64,000 nt of DNA from Squalus acanthias (Eukaryota): NCBI GenBank assembly GCA_030390025.1, contig CM059449.1:33604001-33668000 (forward strand), written 5' to 3'. Position 1 is the stretch's first letter; every line of letters starts with the position of its first letter. The translations under genes were made by a program, and so were the position numbers. The notes under the pieces were generated by a model. It was not told where the DNA came from. It did no database searches and saw only the letters and a list, made by a program, of their open reading frames with translations. Positions 4,655-44,794 of this stretch are shown one piece after another.

Positions 4655-5633
4655 CAGTAATAAAGCAATTGCACTTAGATGAATACATAGAAAGACATAT
4701 ATCCAAATTTGCCGACGACACAAAAATAGGTGAAATTGTATGCATTGTAGATGGAAGCATAAAATTACAAAGGGATATCGACAGATTAAGTGAACGGGCA
4801 AAACTGTGGCAAATGGATTTTATTGTAGGTAAATGTGAGGTCATTCACTTTTGACCTAAAAAGGGTAGATCAGGGTACTTTCTAAATAGTGAATGCTACA
4901 AACAGTGGAGGTCCAAAGAGACTTTGGCGTCCAGGTACGTAGATCATTAAAATGTCATCAACAGTTACAGACAATAATCTAAAAGGCTAATGGGATGCTG
5001 GCCTTTATACCTAGAGGGCTAAAATACAAGGGGTAGAAGTTATGCTGCAGCTATACAAAACCCTAGTTCGACCACACCTGGAGTACTGTGAGCAGTTCTG
5101 GGCCACACACCTTAGGAACCACTTATTGGCCTTGCAGGGAGTGCAGTATAGGTTTACCAGAATGATACCCGGACTTCAAGGGTTAAGTTACGAGGAGAGA
5201 TTACACAAATTAGGTTTGTATTCCCTAGAATTTAGAAGGTTAAGAGATGATCTGATCGAAGTTTTCAAGGTATTAAGTGATACAGATAGGGTATATAGAG
5301 AAAAACTATTTCCACTGGTTAGGAATTCTAGGACTAGGGGGCATAATCTAAAAAATAGAGCCAGATCTTTCAGCAGTGAAATTAGGAATCACTTCTACAC
5401 ACAAAGGCTGGTAGAAGTTTGGAACACTGTGCCGCAAACGGCAATTGATGCAAGAGTAATTGTTAATATTAAATCGTAGCTTGATAGCTTTCTGTTAACC
5501 ACAGGTATTAAGAGATATGGGTCAAAGGTGGGTATATGGAGTTAGGTCACAGATCAGCCAGAAACTCATTGAATGGCGGATCAGGCTCCAGGGGCTAAAT
5601 GGCCTCCTCCAATTCCTATGTTCATATGTTCCT
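4655..5633 (+). mobile_element. CR1 LINE, 5'-truncated (RT C-terminus + 3' UTR)
   Basis: SKFADDTK, LYKTLVRPHLEYC and FYTQR motifs; CCTATGTT-type tail. Confidence 0.92.
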
Positions 5634-6008
5634 AGGATTCACGATGATTATTTCAGTGTGTTCTTGGATCCAATGCAAGACTCGCGTTTGACCCTCTCAG
5701 GTTCTGGTTAAACACCGTTGTAATCTAGGGAGTGAAATCGATATGTTAGACAATCCCGAGATGAAGGTGCAGAGCACAGTACAGAGAATGAAGTGACTTG
5801 TTCATTCTCTTTTCATGGTTCTTCCCCTTATAGGTAGCTCAGAGGCAGTTAGTTTAGTGCACAGGAGTAGCGGGCCTAAAGAGCGGTCGATTCTCACTAC
5901 CTTCGCCTGGAGGCCGGTAGCCTTATCGTTCCGTTAATGTTGTGCAGGGTCCAGTCAGTTCCACAGGCGATGAAACCGGAGAGACCTGTTTGCCCTCCGG
6001 ACTGCCCG

Positions 6009-6165
6009 GCTGCCAAGTCGCTGTCGCCCAATTTGCCTCCAAGTTGCTCTCTCCCATTTAGTTGCCAAGTCGCTCTCTCCCGTTTTGCTGCCAAGTCGCT
6101 ATCGCTCAATTTGCTACCAAGTGGCTCTCTCCCATTTTGCTGCCAGGGCACTCTCTCCCGATTTG
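6009..6165. repeat. About 26-bp tandem repeat x6 (GCTGCCAAGTCGCTCTCTCCCATTTT)
   Basis: Units visible directly. Confidence 0.8.
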
Positions 6166-6955
6166 AACTACTGCGCAAGACAAATTTATACCCCAATGGA
6201 GGTCATTTTAATTGTTGGCGTTAATGTAAAATGGACGATATCGGGTCGGGTATCTGTTATACACCTCTCCCGATTGTCCTTTCCTTGAGATCAATGGGAA
6301 GGAAAGTTGGGAGAGTTGTGTAACGGGTCGCTGATCCGATGACGCCTGTTTTACACTATCTCCTAATCTGAAAATGACACCCAATGACTCTCCACCCTTT
6401 CCTGCCCCTATGAAGGTGCAATGACCACAGTAGGGACGGACAATATTTGCCTTAATGGGGCACTCCGGGAAATGAAATCTGACGGAAAGTGTTTAACACC
6501 TGGGAGTTCCAGTCTGCTTTGTGATCTTCTGATTATATTTCCACCTTTTATCTTAATGCCACTCGGAAACCATTTACATAACAACATTAGATTTGGTGCG
6601 AAGGGATATTCTGGAGGAGGCAGTCTCCCTCTACTTCACCTGGTAGCCAGGTGGGGTCCTGAGTCTGGATTTACACTAAAACATCTGGCGTTAAGCCAAA
6701 CCATCCCTCAGGGATCCTCAGGCTGCAGTATGAATGTGGCCTGTGGGAAGATAAAGTACTCGCTACAATACTGAATCAGGAAGGTTATTAAACTTGCATT
6801 GTCACTGAGACAATGAGTGTGGATCTGTGTCCTGTCAGCCCCCTTTCATTCACCACTAGGAGTTAAGGTTCGCCTTTAAAACGTTCCAGAGGAAATGACC
6901 CTTTCCATGGACTGTGATGCTGACCTCCTTTCTTAAACCTGGGTTTTTTTGATTT

Positions 6956-7006
6956 TCAGGAGTTGGCGGTGCTGCTTAAGGAAGTATTTGAAATGTCTGC
7001 CTTGTT
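6956..7006 (-). CDS. Probable terminal cytoplasmic exon of the class I gene (NKADISNTSLSSTANS*)
   Basis: Strong acceptor TTTCTTTTCAG. The phase-0 frame gives a Ser-rich tail typical of class I cytoplasmic ends, with TGA at 6958-6956. Confidence 0.6.
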   Translation of the reverse strand, partial: NKADISNTSLSSTANS

Positions 7007-7138
7007 CTGAAAAGAAACATGTTCAGAGAGAACGCTTGTAATAATACGATGGTATTGGTAATAAAGGTTATTAGCACGTATGCTTCCGTCTTAACATATC
7101 AATCAAACATAAATTCATGTTGATGCTGATGGTGTTAC

Positions 7139-7167
7139 CATGGGGAAAGTTTTCATGTGTGGGCCAC
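7139..7167 (-). CDS. Probable first cytoplasmic micro-exon of the class I gene (GGPHMKTFPM)
   Basis: 29 nt, AACAG/GTAACA, phase 1-0. Open in frame between the TM exon and the terminal exon. No transcript support available. Confidence 0.55.
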
Positions 7168-7184
7168 CTGTTACAAAACTTAAT

Positions 7185-7335
7185 GGGGTGAAATTGGGCT
7201 CAGGCCGTAGCGCCAAATGGTGATAGCGAATCACCAGCCAGTTTCACACCTACCCCATGGGCTTTTCTATTGACTTCAATGAAATGGCAGCCGATTCACT
7301 AGTGGCTATTTTGTGTTATCGCCCAATTTCACCCC
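7185..7335. mobile_element. Palindromic MITE-like element (type copy of a dispersed family)
   Basis: Perfect 15-bp TIR GGGGTGAAATTGGGC/GCCCAATTTCACCCC; central ATTGACTTCAAT; TAA close to both ends. Confidence 0.8.
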
Positions 7336-7394
7336 CTAAATTTGTTAATAAAGAACTGGATTTTAATTTCACTACACTTGGGACACGTGCATAT

Positions 7395-8035
7395 CGAATA
7401 AAGTAGAAGTTACAACATGGAAAGAGATCCTTTGTCCGAACCAGTGCGTATCGGCATTTACTCTCCACACCAGTAAATATTACTAATCACATTTACCCAC
7501 CCTGTTCTCATATCCCTTAAACCCCTTTTCCCTTTGTCCAACTTCTCAATCTAATCTTAAATGTTGCCATAGTTTCTGCCTCAACCTCTATCACTAGAAG
7601 TGGATTCCACAGCCTCACAACGCTCTGTGAAAAGAATCGTCTCCTACCCTCTGTTCTAAATCTCTAACATTTAACCTGGTATCTATAACCCTTCATTCTT
7701 GACCCTCAACTACTGGAAACAGTATGCTTCTATCTATCCTGAGCCATCCTTCCATCATTTTAAACACTTCTATTATATCACCCGTAATATGCATTTTTCT
7801 AATAAAAATGCGCGTTTTCCAAGTTTTTCCTTGTATTTGTGTTTCCTTCTATCGGGCAGCATCCTAGTGAATCCACCTTGTAGCTTCTCTAAAGCTCAAT
7901 ATCCCGCCTATCGCGTGAAATTCTATACTGCACACAGTGTTCTAACTCCGGTCTTAAGGTTTTATAGAGGCTCATATTTACTTCTTGGCAGTTACGTTCT
8001 GTACCTCGTGTGTTTAAACTTAGAATTCCATTAGT
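7395..8035 (-). mobile_element. Old degenerate CR1 3' fragment
   Basis: Reverse-complement similarity to CR1 3' ends elsewhere in the window (TTCCACAGCCTCACAACGCTCTGTG block). Confidence 0.6.
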
Positions 8036-8090
8036 AACTTTTCCTCGATAAAATTCCAGTTGTTCTTACAGAAGTTAACAAATTAACCAA

Positions 8091-8379
8091 TTTAATCCCA
8101 CTCTAGAGACTTGAGCAGTAAAATCTAGACTGACACACCAGTGCAGTGCTGAGGGACAGCTGCACTGTCGGTGGTGCCATCTTTAGATGGGACGTTAAAC
8201 CGAGACCCAATCTGCCCTCTCAGGTGGATGTAAAAGATCCCTGTGCGCAACTTGGCTGCCGCGTTTCCTACATTACAACAGTGACTACACTTATAATGAA
8301 AGCACTTCATTGGTTGTAAAGCGCTTTGGGACGTCCTGAGGTCGTGAAAGGCGCGCGATATAAATGCAAGTTTTTTTTT
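8091..8379 (+). mobile_element. DeuSINE (SacSINE1-like) with L2-type tail, internally deleted
   Basis: CAGTGCAGTGCTGAGGG...GACGTTAAACCGAG...CAGGTGGATGTAAAAGATCCC core and GTAAAGCGCTTTGGGACGTCC...ATAAATGCAAG tail. Family name recalled from memory. Confidence 0.7.
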
Positions 8380-8492
8380 ATAACAGATATTTAAAATTCA
8401 AAATATAATCCTGGGGCCGGCCAAAAGATTTTCTGTAAAGCCGCTGTGTCATACTTTTACAAACAAGCCTGCAGCATATTCTCTCGATTTAC

Positions 8493-8600
8493 CTCTCCGT
8501 TTTCTCCTCCAAATACAGATTAAAACTATAACGAAAGCCAGCGACACCAGCACACACACGACAATCAGCCCCACATGCTTGTCTTTCTCTACTTTTCCAT
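8493..8600 (-). CDS. MHC class I connecting peptide/transmembrane exon
   Basis: 108 nt, phase 1-1, TTTTTCAG/GTAAAT. Translates DGKVEKDKH-VGLIVVCVLVSLAFVIVLICIW-RRKRR, a TM helix plus basic stop-transfer signal. Confidence 0.92.
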
Positions 8601-9609
8601 CTGAAAAATATTAGCAAGGTTTGTATAATTATATGTGCGGATTGACAGTTTTATATATAATCAGTGGAAACCTATGGCCCTGCTCATGGTAAGTAGGATG
8701 ATGCGCTGTTTTCTATGGACAGTATCCTCACACCATATAATGCACAATGTATTATTTCACTAAGGTGGAGCCAGGTTTCTTTAAAACCACAAAGTTCACT
8801 TTTTGTGTATAAACACAGGTTCTAGTCAACGAGAGGTGGTCAGGCTGTAAAGGTGTCAGGGTAGGTGGGGGGAGGAGCAATGGCTGTGAAGAGTGAAGCA
8901 TGGTTTCTAGACTGATCGGGGCTGGGCCAGCGATAGGAATGTGCAGCTGGGAGGACAATGGAAAAGGGTTGTGGTCGTGGTGCCCAGCGAGGCAGAGGGA
9001 AAACCAGCTGTCCCCTCTCCTGCAACCCCCCATGGATCGCTGTGTAAGGGGAGCCATGTAGGAAACTAGCAGAGGCCTGTGTCTGCGGGACTGGTGAAAG
9101 GGGCAATATGAGGGGTAAGTAATGGCAGTTGAATAGATGATGCCACTGTGCCAGCTCCCAGGGCTGGGGGATCGAGCTTCTGACCGTCCCCACAGCACCG
9201 TGTGATGAGAGGGAGCTCAACGTGCAAGACTTCCGCTCATGAGAATTGTAAATAAGCAAATTATCTACATAAAAGTTTACATTTAATTCAGATAGTTAAA
9301 TGTTTACCTTCTTTTACTTAACGATAGCAACATGACTGCTGTCTCCAAAACCCTGAATGCTCCACAGTGACACTCAGTGGTCCGATTCTGTAACTGCATA
9401 CAGACTCCGTTTCTTTAATTCGAGCTCTCAATATACTGCAAAGGCAGCTTTCTGGTATCGTTCAACAATAGGCGGAACCCTATCATTTTCAATCTGTCAC
9501 CTAATGTTGTTGGATTGGAGCAGCAGCTTTGGAAACTTGACCACACTCAACATTTTCAAAATATTCAGATCGAAATCGAGAGAGAAATATATAGAGAGAT
9601 AGAAACCCA

Positions 9610-10112
9610 NNNNNNNNNNNNNNNNNNNNNNNNNNNNNNNNNNNNNNNNNNNNNNNNNNNNNNNNNNNNNNNNNNNNNNNNNNNNNNNNNNNNNNNNNNN
9701 NNNNNNNNNNNNNNNNNNNNNNNNNNNNNNNNNNNNNNNNNNNNNGAGCGNNNNNNNNNNNNNNNNNNNNNNNNNNNNNNNNNNNNNNNNNNNNNNNNNN
9801 NNNNNNNNNNNNNNNNNNNNNNNNNNNNNNNNNNNNNNNNNNNNNNNNNNNNNNNNNNNNNNNNNNNNNNNNNNNNNNNNNNNNNNNNNNNNNNNNNNNN
9901 NNNNNNNNNNNNNNNNNNNNNNNNNNNNNNNNNNNNNNNNNNNNNNNNNNNNNNNNNNNNNNNNNNNNNNNNNNNNNNNNNNNNNNNNNNNNNNNNNNNN
10001 NNNNNNNNNNNNNNNNNNNNNNNNNNNNNNNNNNNNNNNNNNNNNNNNNNNNNNNNNNNNNNNNNNNNNNNNNNNNNNNNNNNNNNNNNNNNNNNNNNNN
10101 NNNNNNNNNNNN
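9610..10112. other. N-masked or gap segment in intron alpha3-TM
   Basis: Run of N with a 5-nt island (GAGCG, 9746-9750). The left flank is AG-rich, suggesting a low-complexity tract. Confidence 0.95.
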
Positions 10113-11470
10113 ACAGATCTGATTATATGAAGCTGTGTATATGCAGCTTATAAAACTGACTTTAATGAACCGATTTTCTAATTCAAGGGATTGTTATAAA
10201 CAACTGGGAACTGCACAGGTTGGGCCACAACATCTGGAAATTGCCCTCAGCAGCGGATCAGCGCAGTAACCGACCAGAAATACATTTCCAGATCGTTAGG
10301 ATCATCCTACCTGCTCCCCTGAGGGAGGCACCTTTCCATGGAGAGACCTGAATGAGCAGCACCGTTATCTATTAAACAATTTGTGGTAGATTTTCACCGT
10401 GCCGCTCTGGTGTGAGCCTTCTGCTGTGGATCAGCCGCCTGTCACACAAACTGCCCGCTTTTCATTCCCATTGGAGGCAACTCCGGTTTTACACCCGGGC
10501 GGCAGGTTGGAAATCTACCCCGCTGTGTCTAAACCAATAGCAGGAGGTTCCCCTGGAGACATTTGGTGACCCTGGTAATCACCAACAGCAATTTCTAGGC
10601 TGATTCCTGGGGTCCACCACCCGCCCCGCCTGTCCCAACCTTCATTCTTGCTGCAGATTCTTGCTTTCTGGGCAAAGCCCACCGCCCCCACCTTCCCTGT
10701 CTGCAGCTCCCAGTGGACTTCGGCCCATCCCCGCCTCAGGAGCCCAGCCTCAGACCCACCCTTGCCGCCAGGCCGCATTATTTTATCACCCCTCCCCCCA
10801 CTGCACTACATTTTAATGACCTTTCCTCACAACACTTCCCCACTCCTCCTCTCATATCCCAAAGTGACCCGTCACCTCATTCCCCACCTCAACAAAGACA
10901 CAAGAGAAGCAAAAACACACTGAGGCTGAGAGTGAAATAGCTCAGCACAGAGCAAAAGTTCCAGCTCAGAAACCGAGCAGATCCATCACCACAGTGAAAG
11001 GGAACAACAATGAGAAAGCAGAAACAAAGAGTGAAGCAACAGCAAGTCGGGCAAATAAAGAGTCTGATGTCTGAGAGTGGGTGGTGAATGCAGATTAATC
11101 CATTCTCTAACCCAGATAGACTGCGTACAGAGATTCATTTGTTATCTAACTCTGAGACCGTGCGGTGTGTGTGGGGTGTGGGTACAGAGTGGAGATAGAC
11201 AGCAAGAAGCAATGGGAAAGATATAGAGAGAAAGCAAGTGTGCGAGAAGCACACAAGGAGGGGTGGGTGCAGATTATGGAAGAGTCAGAAGATAACAGAA
11301 ATGGACTAAAAGAGAGAGAACGAATGAGGAACAGTCACAGACAACTTGAAGTACAGGGATAACCAAAGTGTTGTCTGATGTGTAAAGAAAAAGAGAGAAA
11401 GAGCAAGACAGGTGTGGGTGATTGTTGCTATTATTGATGGATTGTTCAGTATCGCTGCTCATGTCCTTAC

Positions 11471-11737
11471 CCCAGGAGACTGTTTTCCCACCCGGCAAGC
11501 TGCTGTGCTCAATATGACAGGAGTATTGTTTCCCATCATACGGATCAAATTCAAGGGTTGTCGTCAGTTGATACGTCCCATCTTCATTGGGTAATAACCC
11601 AGTAGATTTGGTCTCGGGGGCATGTTCTCCATTCTTCAACCAGGTAACGCTGATGGACTGCGGGTAAAATCCAGTCACAATGCAGTGGAGAAACCAACGA
11701 TCAGCAGCCCTGGCAATAACTGAGACCTCAGGGGAAA
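11471..11737 (-). CDS. MHC class I heavy chain alpha3 (Ig C1-set) exon
   Basis: 267 nt, phase 1-1, TAG/GTAAGG. Translates VSPEVSV...LHCIVTGFYPQSISVTW...LPNEDGTYQ...YSCHIEHSSL...VSW. Confidence 0.97.
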
Positions 11738-11964
11738 CTACATGATAGAACGACAGTTATTTTCAACTTCAATAAAAGTCGCATATTTCACAATAGAATG
11801 AATGAAGTCATCTTAACTTTTGCCACTAATGTAAAACAAGTGATATCGGATCAGCCGCCTGTTAAAGGAGAATGGGGAGAGTGTGTAACGGAAGCTGATC
11901 CAATATCGCCAGTTCGACACTATCGCCAAACTTTAAATTTACCCCCAAGTTGTTCTGAACTTAC

Positions 11965-12240
11965 CTTTTCTGGTTAGTGATGCGTTTCCAAGTGAATAGT
12001 ATGTCCTCCATAAATCCACACAGTCCTTTTCTAACAAGCTCTTGAAATAAAGGTTCATCTTTGTTTCCTTATCCCATTTCACTTTGAAGGTCTGAGCTAC
12101 TGGATCATGTACAGTCCAAACCAATTTGTCTTTATCAAAACTAAATGCGTATCTTCCATCATAAGCAAACTTCAAAATCCCTACACTAGGGTTGGCATCA
12201 TTCAGCTCACAGCCAAACAGTCCTTGAAGGTAGTGAGTAC
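11965..12240 (-). CDS. MHC class I heavy chain alpha2 exon
   Basis: 276 nt, phase 1-1, TTCTAG/GTAAGT. Translates THYLQGLFGCEL...FAYDG...AQTFKVKW...LEKDCVDLWRTY, with the C101/C164 disulfide pair. Confidence 0.97.
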
Positions 12241-13159
12241 CTAGAACAGAAATTGAATCGATCAATAGCTACATAATTATCTCATCTATTCACACCAAAT
12301 CTGAGAATTTCAGTTATTTTTTAGTCACTCTTTCCAGATAGAAATGGCGTTTAGTATCTAAAACAAGGTTCATCACACAGGGACATAGAATTTACAGCAC
12401 AGAAAGAGAATAATTGACACCAAAGTTAAACGGCAGCTGTCTGCTGTAATATTCCTGCTATATTAGGTGCTTAGAACTGCATGAAAACCCCCAACAGTGT
12501 CCTAACCAATGTCTTCTGTAAGTCAACATCAAGTCCCTGATGTTATACTCAATGACCATTGAGCAAAATACAGACGAGGTGAAATTGGTCTTTGCCAGTA
12601 GTGCGAAATGGACTCATAGCGAATCAGCATCTGTTTTACACTCCACCCATTGTTCTTCTATTAACTTTCAAAGATGTAAAATGGGCTGTCAATTCACCAT
12701 GGCCCCAATGGAAGGGAAGATTGGGTGGAGTGTGTAATGGGTGGCCGATCCAATATCACTCATTTTACACTGTCACCAAAAGTTAGAATTACACCTCACA
12801 TATGCAACACAACAGGAAATTGAGTAGAAAATTTAAAACTCTTACATCTGTGTGTAATTCCTGTCCACAAAAGCATACTTCCTGTTGTCATATTTCAATT
12901 ACATTTGTGTTAAGAATTCCCTTTATAAATTCCTATGTCCACCTTTATAAGGAAGCTGCCACCGTCGGCTGGTCATGCTGTAATTACACCCTCACGCCGG
13001 TGGTGGCACTGCCGGACTTAGCTTTGCATTTCCCAGAGAAACTGCGGTGCTCCAACCAATTCTACTTCTCTGCTTCCCAAATTGAATAAATGTTGGTATT
13101 TAACTATAAATCTAGCTATATTATATTAGAAATGTTATGTACTACCTGACCACACAACC

Positions 13160-14125
13160 TACTGCATATAGTTTTGGTCCCCTTCTTTCAGGAGGGATAT
13201 ACTTCCATTGGAGGCAGTTCAGAGAAGGTTCGCTAGGTTGATTCCTGGGATGGAAGGGTTGTCTTATGAGGAAAGGTTGAGCTAGTTCGGCCTGTATTCA
13301 TTGGAGTTTAAAAGAATATCAGGTGATCTTATTGTAACATAAAAGATTTTCAGGGGGTTGGACAGGGTTGATGCTGAGAGGATGTTTCCCCTCGTGGGGG
13401 AGTCTAGAAGGAGGGGGCACAGTGTCAGAATAAGGGGTTGCCGATTTAAGACGGAGATGAGGAGGAATTTCTTCTCTCATAGGGTCGTGAATCTTTGAAA
13501 ATCTTTACCTCAGAGAGCTGTGGAAGCTGAGTCATTGAATATATTCAAGGCTGAGATAGACAAATTTTTGAGCAACTGTGGAGTCAAGGGTTATAGGGAG
13601 CGGGTAGGAAAGTGGAGTTGAGGCCAAAATCGGATCAGCCATGATCTCATTAAATGGCAGAGCAGGCTCGAGGGGCCGAATGGACTGCTCCTGCTCCTAT
13701 TTCTGATGTTCTTAAGTTCTTATGTTCTTACTTCCTTTTGTCACATTTTTATCAACCTTTTCCCATTATCAATTCCTCTGAATTCATGTTCAAAATCATG
13801 AAGGAGTTGGATAGAGTGAATATGGGGAGAGGTCGGTAACCAGAGGACACAGCTTTAAGGTAATTGGAAAAAGTACCAGAGGTGATATGAGGATTTCTTG
13901 TATGCGTGAGTTGTTGTGATCTGGAATGCATTACCTGAGAGCGTGTTGGAAGCAGATTCAATAGTGACTTTCAAAAGGGAATTGGATATCAATACTTGAA
14001 GGGGAAACGTTGCAGGGCTTTGGGGAAAGGGCAGAGGAGTGGATCTAATTGGATAGCTTTCAAAGACCCGGCACAGGCACGATGGGCTGAATGGCCTCTT
14101 TCTGTGCTGTATTATTTTATGATTC
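13160..14125 (+). mobile_element. Two tandem CR1 3' fragments (about 13160-13730 and 13785-14125) in intron alpha1-alpha2
   Basis: Same 3' ORF2/UTR motifs as 21825-22825. Confidence 0.85.
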
Positions 14126-14789
14126 TATATGTCAACATTTGAAATGGGAGTTGCCGATGTAAAGTCAGCATGTTGCAATTGCACCCTCGCTCCAGTGGTG
14201 GCGCTGTATTGCCTCAGTTTTTTGTTGCCCAACTCTTCAGCCTATACTTCTGGAAAACTCCCGTGTATAAACCAACTCTACTTCTCACCTTCACAATTTT
14301 CCAGCAATGTTGTTACTTAACTATAAATAACATACCAGAATATTTGCCAATGCTGTCACAATACATGCCAGAATGTATGACTTTAAATTGGGGACTGAGT
14401 TATGTTTGCACAGCATAGGCTGACATTCCCTGTCCTCCAACCTTGTTACAATGGACTTGACTCTATGGGGGTAATTTTGACTTTGGCTGAGAGTGTAAAA
14501 TGGGCGATATTTGATCGTCCGCCCATTTTGCACCCCGCCTGATTTTCATATCCATAGAGGTCAACAGAAGGGAAAATCAGACAGGGAGTATATTGGCTAG
14601 TCATTTCGATATCGCTCATTTTACACTATTGCCCAACTATAAAATTTACTCCTAATGAATAGAAAACTGCGGCCAGTGCATTATGCTTTTCTGATAAGCC
14701 ACCTGCGGGATAGAAGACGGCATTGGAACCTCAAACTTACACATCTACATTAAATATCAAATATGTGCTTACCAATATCACTGAGCAAA

Positions 14790-15225
14790 TGCAATGATAT
14801 GAATAATAATCCTTCAATTCAATATTGCCAGTATAATTCAATAAACACAATATTGCCAAGGTGATTCAATAAATGTGTTATTTCCAATGTCATTCAATAA
14901 ATGTGTTACTAATATCATTCATTAAAAGTAATATTACCATGAATGGGAGGTTAATTTTAAATTGTGGTCATAGTGTAAAGCGAACAATATCGGGTCAGTG
15001 GCCTATTATAAACCTCGCCCAATTGAAAGGGAATCTGAGCGAGGTTTAGAACGGGCGGTCGGTCCAATATTGGCCATTTTTCTTTTTGGCTGAAGAGTAA
15101 AAAATTACCCCAATAAACATAATATGATTAGTTACATGTAAAATACCAGCAAAATAATTAAATAAATATAATATTACAAATATCATAAATTAAATGTAAT
15201 AATACAAATGTCATTCAATAAACAC
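14790..15225. repeat. Degenerate AT-rich repeat of about 30 bp (TCATTCAATAAATGT...), split by a MITE at about 14946-15111
   Basis: Repeated ATTCAATAAA blocks on both sides of the MITE. Confidence 0.55.
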
Positions 15226-15317
15226 TAGTGGTGGTGGGGAGGGGCGGATTTTTAACTGTTATCACCAGGTGAAATATGACCAATGCTGAATCGGCCGCCC
15301 ACTTTACACCATCTCCG

Positions 15318-15770
15318 AGCCTGGAGGAGTCCGTGTTCCATGTATATATCGAATGTGAGAGGTTGCGGCCCTTCTTCCATTATCTGAAGAAGCTGCTCCT
15401 CGAATTTAGGCTGCACTTCAGTCCCACGCTCCTGATCTTTGGTCACCCGGTGCGGAGGGGAGCGGGCAGATCTGGGGACCTCCTCGTAGGACTGCTCCTG
15501 GACCTGGCCAAAGTGGCCATCAACTGGTCAAGGCGGCGGGCGGTCGAGGGGCTCGTTCGGCCCGACTTCCTGCCTTTCTTCCGCGGCCACGTTCGCGCCC
15601 GGGTGGCCCTGGAGATGGAGCCCACGGTGTCCACCAGCACGTTCGTGATTTTCCACGACCGGTGGGCACCACAGGGACTGGAGTGCATCTTCAACACCAG
15701 TAACAACATATAAATTTAAGTTGTTTGGTTTCCTTTAATGGTTTTTTTAAGTTACACTTTATTTGTTCAT
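15318..15770 (+). mobile_element. Tx1/L1-clade LINE 3' fragment
   Basis: EESVFHVYIECERL...LLIFG...LAKVAI resembles the C-terminal zinc-knuckle (ETxxHxxxxC) region of L1/Tx1 ORF2. Confidence 0.65.
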
Positions 15771-16362
15771 AGTGTGCACCAAAAGAGTACATCATGTCCG
15801 ATTTTCAGAAAATCGATTAAGGTGTAAAACGACAGCTGATTCACAGGCGCCCATATTTCGCCCGTTTTCCACCACATCTCATTTTCTTTTGCGATCGAGG
15901 TGTAAAACAAAAGCTGAATCACAGGCGCCCGGATTTTATCTGGCTGAAAGTGAAATTCAACTTCAGCAGGGTTGCTGAACGGGTGGCAGCGGAAAAGCCG
16001 TCTGTTATAGACCAAGGCCCATTTTACTGTGAAGTGAATGTAAAGGAAAATCAGGCAGCATGTATAAAGGGTGGCCTCGCTGCTACTGCCCATTTTACAC
16101 CCACCAACACTGAATTTCACCCCCTTATCACCAACATCATTCATTGGGGGTTAATGTTACATTCCAGAGAGGGTGTAAAATGGGTGATATTCAATTAGTT
16201 GCCCATTATACACCTCGCCTAATGTTCCTTTCTGTTGAAGTCAATGGAAGGGAAAATCAGGCGGGTGTATATCAGGCGGTTTGATATTACTCATGTTACA
16301 CAATCCCCCAAGTTTAAATGACCCCTGTCGTTCACTGCATTCATTCAAACGAATACACTCAC

Positions 16363-16623
16363 TTGATGTTTGGTTGTTCTGCTGCATCCATCTATCAACC
16401 TGTCCCTTGATGAGTCCGTGGAATCCAGCTTGAGTTATTGTGTATTCGTCCCAGTAACTCTTCTCAAATGCTTCTGCCATCCATTGCTGTCTTGGAACAG
16501 TTATTTTCATATTTTTGTCGTAATAGTCTATCTCACAGCCATCCAAAAGCCCCATAACACTGTACTCCGGCAGATCAGCACTCCCATGGTTCAGGGTGTA
16601 GTAATATAACAGAGAGTGAGACT
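16363..16623 (-). CDS. MHC class I heavy chain alpha1 exon
   Basis: 261 nt, phase 1-1, acceptor TCCTAG, donor GTGAGT. Translates ESHSLLYYYT...PRQQWM...SYWD...NQTS, with the H3, Y7, D29, P47-R48, W51, Y59-W60 equivalents and the N86 glycosylation sequon. Confidence 0.96.
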
Positions 16624-18480
16624 CTAGGACATAATAAAAAAAAATCATTTCCATACAAATATCAGAAATGTCAGTTTGCTAAACAAATAGGGACAAAATA
16701 ATTTATTCAGAAAAATGCGAGAACACTGGATATTTTGCCATCGCTCCCGTGTTAAACCATTGCAGAGAAGGCAAAATGAGCCTTAATATTAACTCTTATC
16801 CAATTACAAGAATATTCCCATTTTCGAAATAAATGAAAAATGTGATGGTTGAAATAATTTACATCAGCTCAGCTCATTTGTAAATCGTAACTTTAAGATT
16901 TTAGTCCCACGTCTGACCTGGGGATTCTTTGGTGAATTAGTGAGGAAGTGCACCCAGAATTATGGTACTAAGCCGTGCAGAATCCATCCCTGGTGTGTGC
17001 GCAGTGATCTGCTCCCAGCCCGCTGCTTGTAGCGACATTAAAATTGGCCTCAGATTTACTGAGCAAAAGAGGGGAAAAAGCAGCTTGAATATATGCAAAT
17101 TGGGGTTAAAGGACGTTTTCAGGGCCCTCAACAACATTTCCCTCTCTGCCCACATTGTTCCCACTAGTTCCTGATCCTGCCCACAAAGTGGAACCAATCG
17201 GGAGGCAGATATTAAAGGAATCCTCAGTTGGTCTCAAATAAAATTTTGGAATATTTGGGAGATATTTTTCTTCTATTATTTTGTGGAATTTCACTACTTA
17301 ATCCATTTAAAATGCTTGTACTGCCTGCTGAACATTTTGAACTGTTAATGGGCTTCTTGTAATTTCACTCTGGAATGTAGTGAAGGGTCAGTTGTGATTG
17401 GAGGAGAGCCATGGGAATGGGGAGGAAAGGATTAGAAGTGCAGCGGCAAACTTCAGGCGGTGCGAGGCTGTGCAGACAGTAAGAGAGATGTGAAGCCGAG
17501 TCTGACCTTGTCAGTCCTGGTGAGGTCATTACATTTCTTCCTGCAATGCAGACAGATCCTTGGGAAAATGGAATATAAATTTGTCTTGGGCGGCAGCGCG
17601 GAATGGGCGATAGCGAATCAGCAGCCAGCTTTGCCCGCCGCCTGAATTTCTATTCAATTGAAGTCATTGGAAAATAAAATTGGGCGATAGACCAAAACAG
17701 GCTGTCGATCTCCATCAGCCGCTTTCGGGTACCATGCACTTTATACCCAATGTTGCTGCCATTGGCTTGCTCATCCACCTCTCGCCATTACAGCTGACTA
17801 TTTTTCCGGGCCTATCGTTACCTATTAGAGGAGACGAGATCCTCAATACCGGTGCTAACTTGCCCTACAAGCGCTTCCACCGTTGCCCAGAGAATCGGAG
17901 GACACCTGATCATGTCACGAAACCTGCTGCTCCAGTAAGTCGCTCTCCATTAACCACCCTTGAAAAGTGCAGCGGCCATTTAAGGGACTGCAGGCTGCCT
18001 TTAAATCAAAAGGTCTTGGCGCTCATTTCATGTAAATGAAGCCGGATCACGAAAATTATACTGTCCCCACCAACTTAATCTATCTGACGGGCGGAGCATA
18101 GGTTTACCAACCCTCCAGAACTATCCCGCAGTCTCCAGGAATTAAATATTAATCTCCTGGACACCACTGCAAGAAACTAGAGAGAAAGATAACAATAACA
18201 CAACAATCAAAATTATAATATTTTTGGAGCTGGGGACAAAATACGGGTTGACTGGGCTGGAGGTCATGTGATGAAAGCTCCTGGGATGAGTCCAACCAAC
18301 GTTGCCAACACGTCGGTCTGAATCACCGCACAAATCCCCATCTATGATTGGGGGACATTACTTCAGTCCTGCAGTAACTCTCCGGCACCTTTCTTAAGCG
18401 TCCAACGCCACACGAGGCCCTATCGTCACCTCACCGTTTCAACTAACACAGGAGCTCCCCCAGGGCATCCGCAATGTCCG

Positions 18481-18575
18481 AGACAGTCGGTGTATCCCGG
18501 ACTAAACACCGGGGCAGTCATTGTCTCCCAGACGAAACACGGGGCAGTCAGTGTTACCCGGACTAAACCGGGGTC
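18481..18575. repeat. About 29-bp tandem repeat x3 (GGGGCAGTCAGTGTNNCCCGGACTAAACAC) just inside intron 1
   Basis: Units visible directly. Confidence 0.7.
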
Positions 18576-18650
18576 AAATACGTTGTTCTCGATGGCGGTC
18601 ATGTCGTGCAATAAAGAATATAGCCGCACAATTCCTGTCATTTGACTTAC

Positions 18651-18702
18651 CAGGAACCACCCTTTGAGAAAAGTAAAGTCTCAGTAAAGCAAAGAGGAAC
18701 AT
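18651..18702 (-). CDS. MHC class I-like gene, proximal leader exon, MFLFALLRLYFSQRVVP+G
   Basis: ATG at 18702, 52 nt, phase-1 end, donor G/GTAAGT. Same length as the distal leader, with shared nucleotide blocks (ATGTTyCT, TACTGAG, CAA, CTG/GT). Confidence 0.65.
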
Positions 18703-18865
18703 GTTTCAGGGAGTCGCTCAGTTAAAATCCTGCACAGCGAAACGGGAAGGTTTTGTCGTTGTCCGAACCCCTCCCACATTATTCTGCTTATCTCGTTCAG
18801 TGAAAATCATTCTATCCAATGGGAAATAAATCACCTCCCGTCACTGGGGAGGGAATCTCTGGCTC
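18703..18865 (-). promoter_or_regulatory. Candidate promoter of the proximal leader exon (inverted CCAAT, kB-like site)
   Basis: ATTGG on the sense strand at 18820-18816, 114 bp from the ATG. GGGAATCTCT at 18851-18860 is a 9/10 match to GGGRNNYYCC. Confidence 0.4.
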
Positions 18866-19945
18866 TACTCCCAGCATTAGGAACTGCGGGCGGAATTGGA
18901 TTAGAAAAGACCACACTGGTGAATGGCAAAGACTTGAAACTGGAGGAAGACTGGGACACAAATTGAAAGCACCGGCGAGAATATTTCCCACTGAACCTGA
19001 TCGGTAGCGATTATAGAGCTGGCTGTTAAAAGCAGTAGCAATCTCCAATCCTGTGTTTGCACCTTATCAGAACAGGTGCAAACCTCACTGACAAATACAG
19101 CCTCGCCTTGTTAAGGTCAAGGAAAGGCCAATCACAGGCTGGTCACTTTCAATGTTTCTGCTGGGTGATAGAAAGTTTACAAGCTATACAATCTGAAAAT
19201 TCAACCCTCCTCCCTTTCAGAGGTGGTGTAAATCTATCTGCTGTGAACAGATTGAGGCTCTGCTAAAATAGTGAAAAGAGGAATTTCATACCAAGCAACA
19301 AATACACTTGTTGATTGACTCTTATTACTCGCTGTACCGCTGTACATGTTCTGCCTAAAATTACTGTTGGCAATATTAGTAAGACATGTTATTGTCCACT
19401 GTTGTAACACAGCGAATATCCCACTTGTTTTAAACAGGCTGCACCATTAAGTTAACAGGCAAAGCAATGTTACACCAATATGGTAAGCATTTCACCTCCA
19501 ATATCACCAACATTAATTTAGGAACAGGAGGAGGCCATTCAGCCCCTCGAGCCTTTTACTGCCATTCAATTAGGTCATGGCTGATCTGTAATTTAACTCC
19601 ATCCAATCATGGAATGAGACAGCACAGAAGGAGCCCATTCGGCCCATTGTGCCTGTGTCGGCTCTTTGGTAGAACAAGCCAATGATTCCCACTACCTCTT
19701 TTTTCTCCATAGCCCTGTATTTTTGTTTTCCCTTTAAGTATTTGTCCGATTCCTTTTTCAAAGTTACTGTTAAACCGGCTTCCACCTGATGTCCTGAGGT
19801 GGTGAAAGGCGCTGTAGAAATGCATTTCTTTCTTTCTCTCTTTCTTCCACAGCAGCTGTAACAGGTGCCGAAAGCTGCCTCTGGTGTTTACCCCGAACAG
19901 CTCCAGGCTGTGAGCAGCAGGCGCCGATCAATTCCAACAGTCAGT

Positions 19946-20130
19946 GGGCTCGATCTTGACTTTGTGCGATAGTAAAACGGGCGATAGCCAGTCGGCAGCT
20001 CCTTTTACAGCTCTCCAGATTTTTACTGCCATTGAACTCAATAGAAGGGGGAACGGGTTGAAAGATGGAAAAAGGGCTTCAGACTCGCTCTCGCCCTCTT
20101 TACACCATCGCACAGAGTCAACATGAGCCC
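19946..20130. mobile_element. Palindromic MITE-like element
   Basis: TIR GGGCTCGATCTTGACTTTGTGCGAT / ATCGCACAGAGTCAACATGAGCCC; centre CCATTGAACTCAAT. Confidence 0.75.
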
Positions 20131-20907
20131 GAATGGAACCGCACATGGTGGGAATCCGCTACAAACAGCAAATGTTGCAAATATGCAGCAGGTCAGTGTG
20201 AAAGAGACAGAGAGGTTAACTCTGGGAGCTCAATCTTCACCCGAACCTGCACGGACCGCCTCAAAGCTTCATTCTAAAGCGAGTCGGAAAGTGTAAAAGA
20301 GGTTCCCGGGTCGCTGGAACCCGTTTCCCCCTTTGATAAAAGTGAACCCCTCCCTCTGTATTTTTAATGTTTTGCCCGGTTCATTGGGAGTTTTAAAAGG
20401 TTTTCCAAGTTCCCAGGAGGTAGAAAGAAGCTTTTAAAATGCAGCTTCCCGCCGGCTGGAGTTACACTGAAACAGGTGTGAACCCGAACCGACTGAGCTG
20501 CTTTCCTGCAGGAGTCTAGCCGCTGGGCTCTTGGTCACTCAGGGGTCAGGTCGGGATTGGGCTCGCAGTTATACTGACACTTCCGTACCCGCAAGCCGCT
20601 TAGCGGGAACACACTGTCCGTCTCCCTCCTGCTTATCAGAGAGAACATACAAGCTGTCATAGTAACTGAGCTGTAATGTCAGGCTGTCCGGACAGTAATG
20701 GACATCATCTAATCCAAGCAGAGGGAGAAGCGAGCCTGAGAAGCAGGATGGAGATTCCAATCCCGCTTCATCGCTTCACTTCCGCACACACTGTCTAGTT
20801 TCCCTGTGTGATACACCTGATGTGACCGACAGGCCTGCCGGTTACAGTCTAAGATCAGAGGGTGAGCCTGGAGACATTCAAGGATGCAGCGGGAACCGGC
20901 TACTCAC

Positions 20908-20959
20908 CAGACAGGGCCGCTTGTAGGCGGGAGAAACTCAGTACAAGTGACAGAAACAT
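20908..20959 (-). CDS. MHC class I-like gene, distal leader (signal peptide) exon, MFLSLVLSFSRLQAALS+G
   Basis: ATG at 20959, 52 nt, phase-1 end, strong donor G/GTGAGT. Hydrophobic peptide ending A-L-S. Splices in frame to the alpha1 exon (G+AG=Glu). Lies in a CpG-rich region. Confidence 0.8.
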
Positions 20960-21560: not shown

Positions 21561-21824
21561 AACTGCGGCTGTCGTTACAGCAGCGGCGAGTGGGCTAATG
21601 TTTTATTAAAAAAATTCAAGCATACTTTACACGTGAACTGACTTTATTTTGTGCTTCCTCGATGTAAAGCCAAACTGTAAACTGTAAAATATAAAGTCAA
21701 AGTACTGAGTAAAAATAAGGACCGAATGTAGTGACTTTCAAATGGGGATTGAATTATTCTAGGAAAACACCCAATGCTCCAACCATCTCAAGTTGTCCAA
21801 TTCCTAAATTACCCTAAATCTTCC

Positions 21825-22825
21825 TTGGACCCCAGCTATTCACAATATACATTAATGATCTAGATAAGGGAACTAAATGTAATATCTCCAATTTTCCAGA
21901 TGACACAAAGCTGGGTGGGCGTGTGTGCTGCGAGGAGGATACCGAGAAACTCCAGGATGATTTGGACAGGTTGGGTGAATGGGCAGAAGCGTGGCAGATG
22001 CAATATAACGTGGATAAATGCGAGGTTATCCACTTTGGTGTCAAAAACAGAAAGGCAGACTATTATCTGAATAACAATAGATTGGGAGAAGGGGAAGTGC
22101 AACGAGACCTGGGTGTCCTTGTGCACCAGTCGCTGAAGGTAAGCATGCAGGTGCAGCAGGTGGTGAAGAAGGCAAATGGTATGTTGGCCTTCATAGCGAA
22201 ATGGTTTGAGTATAGGAACAGGGATGTCCTGCTGCAGTTGGGCTTGGTGAGACAACACCTTGAGTACTGTGTGCAGTTTTGTTCGCCTTATCTGAGGAAG
22301 GATGTTCTTGCCATGGAAGGAGTTCAGCGAAGATTCACAAGGCTGATACCTGGGATGGCAGGAATGACATATGAGGAGAGATTGAGTCGATTGGGCTTAT
22401 GCTCGCTGAAGTATAGAAGAATGAGAGGGGATCTCATCGAAACATATAAAATTCTGACAGGTCTGGACAAACTAGATGCAGGAAGAATGTTCCCGGTGGT
22501 CGGAGAGTCTAGAACCAGGGGTCATAATCTAAGGATAAGGGGTAAGCCATTTAGGACAGAAATGAGGAAGTATTTCTTCACCCAGAGAGTGGTGAACCTG
22601 TGGAATTCTCTACCACAGAAGGTAGTTGAGGCCAAGTCATTAAATATATTCAAGAATGAGTTAGATATATTTTTTAATGCCAAAGGTAACAAGGGATATG
22701 GGGAGAAGGCAGGTACAGGGTACTGAGTTTGGATGATCAGCCATGATCTCATCGAATGGCGGAGCATGCTCGAGGGGCCGAATGGCCTACTCCTGCTCCT
22801 ATCTTCTATGTTTCTATAACTATGA
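21825..22825 (+). mobile_element. CR1 LINE 3' portion, open for 267 aa (21923-22726)
   Basis: LQDDLDRL..W...WQM.YN.DKC.V.HFG and FFTQRVVNLWNSLP motifs; CR1 tail. Confidence 0.95.
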
Positions 22826-26070: not shown

Positions 26071-26330
26071 TTGAACTGAGGTTCATCTGCTGTAACGTTC
26101 TGGAAAGTTGCCCTTTCTGATTCCGTGGAAACTGGCTGCAGTAATTATGAGTTCCTCACAGTAACTGGTGTAATAGGAATTCACCATCCACTGCTTCCTT
26201 GGAACCGTTATGTACATATTGCTGTCACAATAGTTTATCTCACAGCCATCCACAACCTCCATTATACAATAGTCCGGAAGATCAGAAATCCCATGGTCCA
26301 GTGTGTAGTGATTCATCAAAGAGTGAGAAT
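26071..26330 (-). pseudogene. Orphan frameshifted alpha1 exon of a paralogous class I gene
   Basis: Translates DSHSLMNHYTLDHGISDLPDY...DGCEI...ITVPRKQWM. Intact TTCTAG/GTAAGT sites, but 260 nt (1 nt short), giving an in-frame TGA at 26085-26083. Carries Y7>N and W60>C. No alpha2/alpha3 partner seen before the next gene. Confidence 0.9.
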
Positions 26331-33425: not shown

Positions 33426-35714
33426 TCGGAGCGGCTGCAGGGCATTCTGGAGGGGGAGGGTGAACAGCCAGGTGTCGTGGTGCATATAGGTACCAACGAT
33501 ATAGCTACAAAACGGGATGAGATCCTAAAAGCTGAATATAGGGAGTTAGGAGGTAAATTAAAAAATAGGACCTCAAAGGTGGTAATCTCAGGATTGCTAC
33601 CGGTGCCACTTGCTAGTCAGATTAGAAATAGAAGGATATTTCAGATGAATACGTGGCAAGAGGAATGGTGAAAGGGGGAGCGATTCAAATTCCTGTGGCA
33701 TTGGAACCGGTTCTGGGGGAGGCGGGACCAGTACAAACTGGACGGTTTGCACCTGGGCAGGACCGGGACCGAAGTCCTAGGGGGAGCGTTTGCTAGTGGT
33801 GTTGGGGAGGGTTTAAACTAAAATGGCAGGGGTTTGGGAAACTGTGCAGGGAAACAGAGGAAAGGGAAGCAAGGATAGAAGCAAAAGACAGGAAGGAGAA
33901 AAGCAAAAGTGGAAGGCAGAGAAATCAAGGGTGTAAATCAAACAGGGCCACAGTAAATAATAATTCTAAAAGGAATAAAAGTGTTAAAAAAACAAGCCTG
34001 AAAACTTTGTGTCTTAATGCGAGGAGCATTCGTAATAAGATGGATGAATTAGCTGCGCAAATAGATGTAAACGGATATGATATAATTGGGATTACGGAGA
34101 CATGGCTCCAGGGTGACCAAGGCTGGGAATTCAACATCCAGGGGTATTCAATATTCAGGAAGGACAGACAAAAAGGAAAAGGAGGTGGGGTAGCATTGCT
34201 GGTTAAAGAGGAGATTAACACAATAGTAAGGAAGGATATTAGCTCTGATGATGTGGAATCTGTATGGGTAGAGCTGAGAAATTCCAAGGGGCAGAAAACG
34301 TTAGTGGGATTTGTATACAGACCCCCAAACAGTAATGCTGAGGTTGGGGATGGAATTAAATGGGAAATTAGAGATGCGTGCAATAAGGGCACAGCAGTTA
34401 TCTTAGGTGACTTTAATCTACATATAGATTGGGCTAACCAAATTAGTAACAATACTGTGGAGGAGGAATTCCTAGAGTGTATACGGGATGGTTTCTTGGA
34501 CCAATATGTCGAGGAACCAACTAGAGATCAGGCCATCTTAGACTGGGTATTATGTAATGAGAAAGGATTAATTAGCAATCTTGTTGTTCGAGGCCCCTTG
34601 GGGAGGAGCAATCATAATATGATAGAATTCTTCATTAAGATGGAGATTGAAGTAGTTGACTCCGAGACGAGGGTCCTGAATTTAAATAAAGGAAACTGCG
34701 ATGTTATGAGGCGTGAGTTGGTTAGGATGGATTGGGGAATGTTACTTAAAGCGTTGATGGTGGATAGGCAATGACAAACAATTAAAGATTGCATGGAAGA
34801 ACTACATAATTTGTTCATCACTGTTTGGCATAAAAATAAATAAAAAAGTTGACTCAACCGTGGCTAGCAATGGAAATTAGGGATAGCGTAAGATCCAAGG
34901 AGAGGGCATCTCAATTGGCCAGAAAAATCAGCAAACCTGAGGATTGGGAGCAGTTTAGGATTCAGCAAAGGAGGACAAAGGGATTAATTAAGCGGGGGGA
35001 AATAGAGTATGAGAGTAAGCTTTCAGGGAATATAAAAACTGACTGTAAAAGCTTCTATAGATATGTGAAGAGAAAAAGATTGGTGAAGTCAAGCCTACGT
35101 CCCTTGCAGTCAGAATCAGGGGAATTTATAATGGGGAACAAAGAAATGGCGGACAAATTAAATACATACTTTGGTTCTGTCTTCACAAAGGAGGACACAA
35201 ATAACCTCCCTGAGATGTCCGGGAACATAGGGTCGAATGACAGTGAGGAATTGAATGAAATCAGTGTTTGTAGGGAAATGGTGTTAGGGAAATTGACGGG
35301 ATTGAAGGCCAATAAATCCCCAGGGCCTGATAATCTACATCCTAGGGTACTTAAGGAAGTGGCCTTAGAAATAGTAGATGCATTGCTGGTCATCTTCCAA
35401 AATTCTATAGACTCTGGAACAGTTCCCAAGGATTGGAGGGTAGCTAATGTAACCCCACTATTTAAAAAAGGTGGTAGAGAGAAAATCGGGATTTATAGAC
35501 AGGTAAGCCTGACATCGGCAGTGCAGAAAATGCTAGAGTCCATTATAAAAGATGTAATAGCAGAGCACTTGGAAAACAGTGACAGGATCGGACAAAGTCA
35601 ACATGGATGTACAAAAGGTAAATCATGCTTGACTAATCTGCTGGAATTTTTTGAGGATGTAACTGGTAGAATAGATAAGGGAGAACCAGTGGATGTGGTG
35701 TATTTGGACTTTCA
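33421..35714 (+). mobile_element. CR1 LINE: ORF1 esterase C-terminus, APE endonuclease, RT N-terminus
   Basis: VVVHIGTND (SGNH esterase); CLNARSI, GITETW, GDFN and ILDWVL (APE); PGPD and VYLDF (RT). Broken at 35714 by family B LINE. Confidence 0.95.
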
Positions 35715-43846: not shown

Positions 43847-44794
43847 TAGCCTTCACCCCAAACTAACCCATCAACCCCATACTGACCATCACACTAAACT
43901 GACCCCTCAACCCAAGCTGACCTATTAAACCCAAATTGCGCATCACCCCGAAACTGCCCCATGAACCCCAAACGGATCCATCACCGCAAACTGACCGCTC
44001 CCCGAAACTGACCCATCAAGCACAAACTGACCCGTCACCCTCAAACTGACCCATAACCCCAAAACTGAGCCATCACCAGCAAACTGAGCCATCGCCACCA
44101 AAGTTTCACAGCACTTAACCCTTATCCAAAGCTACCCTTCAACCCGAATCTAACTGATCAACTCAAACTGATCAACTCACCTCAAACCGACACCTCATAC
44201 CAAACTGACCCCTCACCTCAAACTGTCTCTTCACCCACAAACTGATCCATCATCCCAATCTCACGCCTCACCTCAAACTGAACATTCCCCCCAAACTTAC
44301 CCATCACCCCAAACTTACCCATCACCCCAAGCTGAGCCATCACCCCAAACTGATCTTTGCCCCAAACTAACTCATCACTCCTAACTGTCCTCTCAACCCA
44401 ATCTATTCCATCATCCCAATCTAACCCATCACCTTCAAACTGACCCATTACAGCGACACACACCGATTACCCCAAACTGACCCATCACCCCTAACTGAAC
44501 CATCACTCCCAAACTGGCACATCTCTCCCAAACTGGGCTATCACCGTCAATTGGCCAGTCACTCCAAACGGACGCACCACCCCAATACTGGCCCATCATT
44601 CCAAACTGATCCATCACCCCAAACTGACTACTCATCTCAAACTGATCCTTCACCCCAAACTCGTTCATCACCCTAAGCTGACCAATCACCCACAAACTAA
44701 ACCATCACCCCAAACAGACCATTACCCCAAACTAACACATCACCCCAAACTGACCCATTACCCCAAACTGACCTCTCACCCTATTCTGATCCTT

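Follow-up and report, generated by a model that had tools for sequence, protein, structure and literature searches.

Based on its gene structure, phylogenetic placement and groove chemistry, we propose that a gene in the 64-kb stretch of Squalus acanthias DNA analysed here (the window) encodes an intact 326-residue heavy chain of the nonclassical MHC class I lineage UGA, which quite probably binds lipids in a hydrophobic groove and cycles through endosomes via a YNGV tail motif, in the manner of CD1. The gene structure, the splice between exons 5 and 6, UGA orthology, the groove chemistry and a conserved YxxΦ motif are established here, and groove lipid binding and endosomal trafficking are predicted as likely for this gene. 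Sequence comparison shows the gene to be orthologous to nurse shark UGA, whose lineage is already described, and what the locus adds is a new UGA orthologue within it.

The locus is an intact class I heavy-chain gene on the minus strand, with an open frame and GT–AG introns in phase 1; the corrected model has six exons (981 nt, 326 aa) and ends at 5708. The features of the window are:

20908..20959, minus strand: exon 1, ATG and signal peptide (17 codons + 1 nt), placed by splice signals and homology
16363..16623, minus strand: exon 2, alpha1 domain, 63 of 86 residues identical to PDB 9CH4 (counted by eye)
11965..12240, minus strand: exon 3, alpha2 domain, Pfam MHC_I match, sharing 69 of 91 residues with 9CH4 (count made by eye)
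11471..11737, minus strand: exon 4, alpha3 C1-set Ig domain, C1-set match
8493..8600, minus strand: exon 5, connecting peptide, transmembrane helix and basic stop-transfer run, in contigs from 4/4 runs
5708..5724, minus strand: coding part of exon 6, the last exon, reading D-Y-N-G-V-stop before the 3′ UTR; joint 5724–8493 in 4/4 runs
6956..7167, minus strand: exons 6 and 7 as presumed in a preliminary description (7167–7139 and 7006–6956), intron 5 sequence with unsupported exon status
26071..26330, minus strand: lone paralogous UGA-type alpha1 exon, AG/GT ends, 1-nt deletion (frameshift), 73% nucleotide identity

Leader, alpha1, alpha2, alpha3 and transmembrane exons joined in phase 1, together with cysteine pairs in alpha2 and alpha3, identify the product as an MHC class I heavy chain. 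The leader is 88% identical to those of the sawshark proteins P0003 and P0005. Exon 2 retains Y7 and Y59, carries Q84 and an additional cysteine at mature position 30, and has an N-glycan sequon at the site equivalent to class I N86, while exon 3 combines the C101–C164 pair and the retained K146, W147 and Y171 with G97, A123, F143, L159 and L167; alpha3 is 60–94% identical to that of 17 family members. Pfam assigns alpha2 to MHC_I and alpha3 to C1-set. The alpha1 exon searched alone matched no Pfam family; it matches 9CH4 with E=3e-43, and MHC_I spans alpha1–2 of the orthologue P0003.

The exon 1–4 junctions are based on splice signals and homology, not reads; the read evidence consists of contigs from four of 22 listed runs over the interval 5300–9600, with no listed run on record as RNA. 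Within that interval, each of the four runs yields contigs in which 8493 is joined directly to 5724, with GT–AG ends, and the spliced contigs show 0 differences from exon 5 in X1 and X2. Two exon-5 variants, either alleles or paralogues, occur inside single runs (X1, X2, X3). The preliminary description had proposed an open frame with GT–AG sites and consistent phases, which stands, and seven exons encoding 347 aa, which does not: we rebuilt that model, reproducing its length and end point, and rejected it on the tails of orthologues and the contig joints, none of which, in the four runs, uses 7167–7139 or 7006–6956. One X3 contig (6959–7052, depth 4.2) passes unspliced through the supposed acceptor at 7006. 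We also considered that exon 5 might be read through into the intron, which the contig joints do not support. The cytoplasmic tail predicted earlier is replaced by 5724–5708, to which the contigs splice exon 5 instead and which lies beyond the interval 6956..20959 covered by that description.

PDB 9CH4, a crystal structure released in March 2026 whose title reads 'shark nonclassical MHC class I, UGA' (8GM8 being UFA), shares 73% of alpha1 residues and 76% of alpha2 residues with this gene; its sequence is letter-identical to the row 'Gcirratum_UGA' in the supplement of PMC10751288. Against the PDB, the window alpha1 scores 149 bits for UGA 9CH4 and 50 bits for UFA, and the orthologue P0002 recovers 9CH4 at the top (E=4e-132; next entry 2e-56). 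In trees of 83 sequences, inferred per domain and from the concatenated domains (nurse shark UGA itself, UFA and CD1 being left out), the window gene and 17 shark and ray proteins form one 18-member clade (FastTree support 0.88, 0.997 and 0.92 per domain, 1.0 concatenated), which includes P0009, near-identical to skate UGA rows of the same supplement. The gene does not cluster in these trees with the UDA, UBA or UCA/UEA lineages, outgroup labels having been given by eye from supplement rows with none labelled UEA, nor does it group with classical UAA, represented by Triakis P0048. The earlier view that the gene is not classical is supported; clustering with highly polymorphic UAA alleles had been named as one outcome that would refute it. 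Whether the lineage is new had been left open; we reject a new lineage, since the 9CH4 match and the 18-member clade place the gene in named UGA and, by the preliminary description's own reasoning, a position inside a described lineage leaves no novelty of lineage. Nurse shark UGA shares the clade and the anchor losses with this gene, as does skate UGA. However, the present gene has Y63, Q67, A123 and Q84 where 9CH4 has C63, E67, I123 and K84, comes from another shark species, encodes a protein absent from the protein collection and has a broken alpha1 duplicate upstream.

In the groove, every earlier residue assignment is reproduced (Y7, Y9, V24, Y59, Y63, F70, L73, I74, W81, Q84, L95, F99, L114, F116, Y122, A123, F143, K146, W147, M152, F156, L159, L167 and Y171), with numbering verified by eye on a published alignment that includes HLA-A2 and UGA. 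Among nine positions that we take to anchor peptide termini, five are kept (Y7, Y59, Y171, K146, W147) and the others are replaced by Q84, A123, F143 and L159; W167 is also replaced. The groove had been described as hydrophobic and aromatic, and indeed 17 of 22 positions, a set following HLA-A2 pocket definitions, are hydrophobic. The mean Kyte–Doolittle value over the 22 is 1.24, whereas none of 25 classical-like sequences exceeds 0.71. Among the 65 other class I proteins compared, a UGA-like skate protein alone comes up to this mean, and 18 of the 22 positions are the same as in 9CH4 (by eye). Y9, F99, L114, W133, W147, F156 and L159 are invariant in all 18 family members, and K146 and G97 are each present in 17. 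T143 and Y159, which are required for peptide ends, are absent from every member. At the sequence level, a CD1-type hydrophobic groove lining is present, but its large aromatic side chains might occupy the cavity, which, like the five kept anchors, speaks against the lipid reading.

The protein ends in RRKRR-DYNGV, in which YNGV is a YxxΦ motif that was overlooked earlier because the tail then predicted is unsupported. Ten of the 18 family tails carry YxxΦ, compared with 2 among the 45 tails of other class I proteins; in 13 of those 45, YxxA stands instead. The remaining eight family records lack a YxxΦ tail; at least in P0003, the homologous exon is used but its frame is shifted. YNGV resembles the CD1 endocytosis signal and places a tyrosine-based motif, predicted to act in sorting, in a short tail as in CD1, which strengthens the lipid-presenter reading. 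CD1 is internalised through a tyrosine-based tail motif and AP2, according to the portion of PMC12286804 consulted. We found no description of YxxΦ for UGA in the literature searched, which included no primary UGA paper, and one may be in print. The tail is read-supported and its YxxΦ motif is conserved from sharks to rays; this motif makes CD1-like endosomal trafficking directly testable by a single point change.

For structural comparison, the backbone of the orthologue P0003 was modelled with a 79-sequence alignment rich in classical sequences (pLDDT 90.9); an earlier prediction from 13 sequences (mean pLDDT 56, alpha1 <50) served only for a PDB title. The model matches UGA 9CH4 best (Z 30.7, rmsd 1.9, 268 residues aligned). 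Chicken YF1 and classical class I molecules of birds give Z 27–28, and chicken CD1-1 gives Z 25.5 (rmsd 3.2, 262 aligned); ZAG, HFE and FcRn are similar to CD1 at Z 24–25.9, human CD1d reaches Z 23.4 and UFA 8GM8 Z 21.8 (rmsd 2.4, 251 aligned, 28% identity). The higher Z for classical class I and YF1 than for CD1 and UFA suggests that the modelled fold is class I-like, not CD1-like. UFA is likewise nonclassical, reported as CD1-like and lipid-binding, and located in an MHC-Ib cluster; however, its alignment rows lack the K146/W147 motif present here, and its low alpha1 score, identity and Z set the gene apart from that lineage. CD1 has in common with UGA a hydrophobic groove, a tyrosine motif in a short tail and reported lipid ligands (second-hand for UGA), but is only 20–27% identical, and UGA has a backbone nearer classical class I and keeps Y7/Y59/Y171/K146/W147. 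Classical shark UAA (6LUP, Triakis P0048) shares the domain and exon plan of exons 1–5 and the five kept anchors, whereas four anchors and W167 are replaced here and a short YxxΦ tail stands in place of a long YxxA tail. MR1 binds ligand through K43 and R9, unlike the T and Y aligned here.

We hypothesise that the UGA heavy chain pairs with beta-2-microglobulin and that acyl chains would rest on Y9/V24/L95/F99/L114/F116 as a floor, which G97 would deepen, between walls of F70/L73/I74/W81 and M152/Y155/F156/L159/L167. The family-conserved polar residues T66, Q77, K146, W147 and D163 could hold the head group near the surface, the tail motif could bring in AP-2, and perhaps AP-3, so that lipids are exchanged in endosomes, and innate-like T cells may read the loaded molecule. 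In the sections consulted of a 2025 review (PMC12562908), a personal communication is the source for UFA and UGA being CD1-like and binding lipids; the review does not separate the two, and mentions structural and mass-spectrometry results that suggest ligands like the lipids of CD1d. In the form of a shark nonclassical molecule with a hydrophobic groove, probably binding lipid, the preliminary proposal is supported and agrees with these reports. UGA and UFA point to an origin of lipid presentation as far back as the jawed vertebrates, a case largely made by the groups behind both deposited structures, to which this locus adds little. More tentatively, and with considerable doubt, UGA may be an independent route to endosomal lipid presentation and not a CD1 relative, having a classical-type backbone, a shortened tail in which the YxxA tyrosine became a CD1-type YxxΦ, end clamps kept for lipopeptides or single-chain lipids, and an unlabelled sister paralogue in skates (P0030).

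Other functions would be compatible with parts of this evidence. UGA could present lipopeptides or single-chain amphiphiles (N-acyl amino acids, N-myristoylated peptides, lysolipids), with Y7/Y59/Y171 and K146/W147 taking the peptide or carboxylate end, as in chicken YF1*7.1, which has a class I-like backbone (Z ~27) and non-peptide lipid-bearing ligands. The near-constant K146 and W147 favour this idea, as does the modelled backbone, which scores equally against YF1 and classical bird class I and lower against CD1 and UFA, but the peptide-end residues T143 and Y159 are lost in the whole family. YF1*7.1 is a bird MHC-Y gene with ~31% identity and no evidence of orthology. It binds N-myristoylated peptides (PMC12212280, in part), yet lipids comparable to those of CD1d are reported in the review passages (PMC12562908), and we consider this explanation unlikely. 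It is quite improbable, too, that the groove is occupied by its own aromatic side chains or a structural lipid and that UGA is a receptor, carrier or NK-type ligand (FcRn-, ZAG- or EPCR-like) whose tail motif recycles cargo. Groove positions are almost invariant among sharks and rays, the modelled similarity to ZAG, HFE and FcRn is at a CD1-like level, and iNKT cells are marked '?' for sharks in a table of the review (PMC12562908), but G97 would open a deep cavity and the same review passages report bound lipids.

A peptide presenter that strongly favours hydrophobic anchors, or a classical allele that has diverged, might explain the five kept anchors and the two exon-5 variants within single runs; with P0003 only ~36% identical to nurse shark classical 6LUP, the gene apart from Triakis P0048 in the trees, and Q84, A123, F143 and L159 in anchor places, we regard this as very unlikely. 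We give almost no credence to a silent duplicate or pseudogene, given the open frame, the canonical splice sites and spliced contigs identical to exon 5 in X1 and X2, even though exons 1–4 are joined on splice signals and homology and the alpha1 paralogue 5.4 kb upstream is broken. No alpha2 or alpha3 exon matching that fragment was found in the 64-kb window, which contains one intact UGA copy and one alpha1 fragment.

The minus strand of the window carries an MHC class I heavy-chain gene with an open reading frame, the first five exons of which are bounded by GT-AG introns, all in phase 1.

Exons 1 to 5 (each GT-AG, phase 1) and the N runs between exons 4 and 5
20959-20908, minus strand: exon 1
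16623-16363, minus strand: exon 2 (alpha1)
12240-11965, minus strand: exon 3 (alpha2)
11737-11471, minus strand: exon 4 (alpha3)
9751-10112: N run within intron 4
9610-9745: N run within intron 4
8600-8493, minus strand: exon 5

The join of exons 4 and 5 agrees with the orthologues. Pfam assigned the alpha2 exon to MHC_I and the alpha3 exon to C1-set; the alpha1 exon alone matched no Pfam family, and in the sawshark orthologue P0003 MHC_I covers both alpha1 and alpha2. Upstream of exon 1 (21110-21025, minus strand) are candidate kB-like (21109), ATTGG (21080) and ISRE-like (21031) matches.

Adding 7167-7139 and 7006-6956 to these five exons yields the 347-aa length and the end point proposed in the preliminary description. 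However, the tail of this model differs from those of the orthologues, which are short and in many cases carry a terminal tyrosine motif. A scan for phase-1 acceptors identified an exon at 5724 encoding D-Y-N-G-V-stop, one of five xYxx[VIL] starts among 443 strong acceptors on both strands; the annotated tail of P0003 matches this exon, but in a shifted frame. Contigs from 4 of 22 listed sequencing runs, representing two studies and classed as RNA by the tool's guess, were compared with 5300-9600. In this interval contigs from all four runs splice 8493 to 5724 across a GT-AG intron; neither 7167-7139 nor 7006-6956 serves as an exon in any of them, and one contig runs unspliced over 7006. The last two exons and the 347-aa product are therefore unsupported, and our revised gene ends at 5708 and comprises 6 exons (981 nt, 326 aa). 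It is real, intact and spliced at its 3′ end, the junctions of exons 1 to 4 being predicted from splice signals and homology. Two variants of exon 5 (8493-8600) occur within single runs and represent either alleles or almost identical paralogues. In runs X1 and X2 the variants carry 0 and 5 differences, one of them with a 3-nt in-frame insertion; in X3 they carry 2 and 3. The UGA family has three records in sawshark and three in sawfish.

To judge from sequence comparison, the gene is a further member of the already known UGA lineage. An alpha2 exon search returned 14 homologues (70-87% identity), from sharks and rays only, and full-length P0003 returned 18. With an orthologue as query, the top PDB match was 9CH4 (E=4e-132; next entry E=2e-56), entitled 'Crystal structure of shark nonclassical MHC CLASS I, UGA' and released 2026-03-18; UFA is the separate entry 8GM8. 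Counted by eye on the printed alignment, the window protein and 9CH4 are identical at 63/86 alpha1 and 69/91 alpha2 residues. In the PMC10751288 supplement, rows labelled nurse shark UGA have the same letters as 9CH4 and rows labelled skate UGA are almost identical to P0009.

The per-domain phylogeny proposed in the preliminary description was inferred with FastTree from 83 sequences: the window protein, 17 homologues and 65 representatives picked as mostly single-copy-length records, with the fusion P0010 excluded, UDA-, UBA- and UCA-like labels given by eye, and UFA and CD1 absent. The window protein and its 17 homologues formed one clade in every domain (support 0.88 for alpha1, 0.997 for alpha2, 0.92 for alpha3 and 1.0 concatenated). 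This placement removes the novelty of a possible new lineage, as the preliminary description had itself stipulated. The nearest sequences by identity are sawshark P0001 and P0003 (85-94% per domain), and the 83-sequence tree did not resolve the position of the window species. P0115, which matches the sequence that the PMC10751288 supplement gives as elephant shark UGA, and the similar P0083 were placed outside the 18-member clade, a position that is weakly supported; the holocephalan UGA label may therefore not mean strict orthology. The divergent skate protein P0030 (XP_055486430.1; 40% to P0003) was sister to the UGA clade in the concatenated tree (0.989) and has G97, M152, Y155, F156, L159 and D163 in common with the family. 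Its groove is more hydrophobic still, it keeps 2/9 anchors and lacks a YxxΦ tail, and it is possibly an unlabelled paralogous lineage.

All groove residues called in the preliminary description were reproduced, with numbering checked on the HLA-A2 rows of the PMC10751288 supplement. Five of nine peptide anchors are kept. Scoring used 22 positions that we take to line the groove; 17 are hydrophobic and 1 is charged in the window protein (mean hydropathy 1.24). The mean is 1.36 for the UGA family versus -0.12 for the 65 other class I proteins, of which only P0030 exceeds the window protein; the highest value among 25 classical-like sequences is 0.71. Y9, F99, L114, W133, W147, F156 and L159 are invariant in all 18 family members, 17 of which also have G97. 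Since 18 of the 22 positions are the same in the window protein and 9CH4, findings on that structure should apply to the window protein for the most part. An extra Cys occupies mature alpha1 position 30 in 17/18 members; position 63 is Cys in several, including 9CH4, and Tyr in the window protein.

A model of P0003 built from 79 sequences (mean pLDDT 90.9) was closest to 9CH4 (Z 30.7, rmsd 1.9, 268 aligned), followed by classical bird class I, nurse shark 6LUP and chicken YF1 (Z 27-28) and by MR1 and ZAG (Z near 25.9). Chicken CD1-1 (Z 25.5) scored below classical class I, as did CD1d (23.4) and UFA (21.8). The model tentatively argues against a CD1-type backbone, although its alignment is rich in classical sequences. 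A membrane-near YxxΦ motif occurs in 10/18 family sequences. Among other class I proteins, a tail could be recognised in 45, of which 2 have YxxΦ and 13 carry YxxA; a further 20 had no usable tail. Several of the eight family records lacking YxxΦ are isoform or fused annotations, P0003 being the one checked.

The gene structure, orthology, groove chemistry and tail motif are documented here; the product is most likely a lipid-binding surface molecule. UGA would pair with beta-2-microglobulin at the cell surface, bind lipid, as reported second-hand for the lineage, recycle through endosomes and show its cargo to innate-like T cells. According to PMC12562908, UFA and UGA are CD1-like genes in single or low copy; the paper cites a personal communication that their structures and mass-spectrometric data point to lipids like those of CD1d. 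PMC10751288 describes UFA as CD1-like and as unpublished, and UGA appears among the query sequences it used. Internalisation of most CD1 molecules relies on AP2 and a tyrosine-based motif in the tail (PMC12286804). No primary paper on UGA turned up in our literature search; the tail motif may already be described in subscription papers or in bioRxiv supplements, which lay outside its scope.

Lipopeptide or single-chain ligands have a precedent in chicken YF1*7.1, which carries N-myristoylated peptides (PMC12212280), and YF1 is among the closer structural matches; beside the CD1d-like lipids reported for UFA and UGA, we regard such ligands as improbable. A receptor or carrier that presents no antigen, set against the same lipid report, appears slightly less probable again. 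Peptide ligands, for which the five retained anchors could be cited, seem very unlikely, given that Q84, A123, F143 and L159 take the place of anchors. A silent gene copy is scarcely credible for an open frame with spliced contigs.

A second UGA-type alpha1 exon lies at 26330-26071 (minus strand; 73% nucleotide identity, AG/GT ends, 1-nt deletion), its likeness confined to the exon, and no partnering alpha2 or alpha3 exon occurs within the window. A broken GPCR-like stretch at 41356-41774 (plus strand) matches the GPCR portion of P0010, in which a skate annotation fuses UGA with a 7TM receptor; this match may hint at a common neighbourhood. The rest of the window is full of LINE-type reverse transcriptase/endonuclease remnants, as judged from ORF translations.

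Examples of LINE-type remnants (ORF translations)
21818-22723: LINE-type remnant
33797-35724: LINE-type remnant
42574-45945: LINE-type remnant
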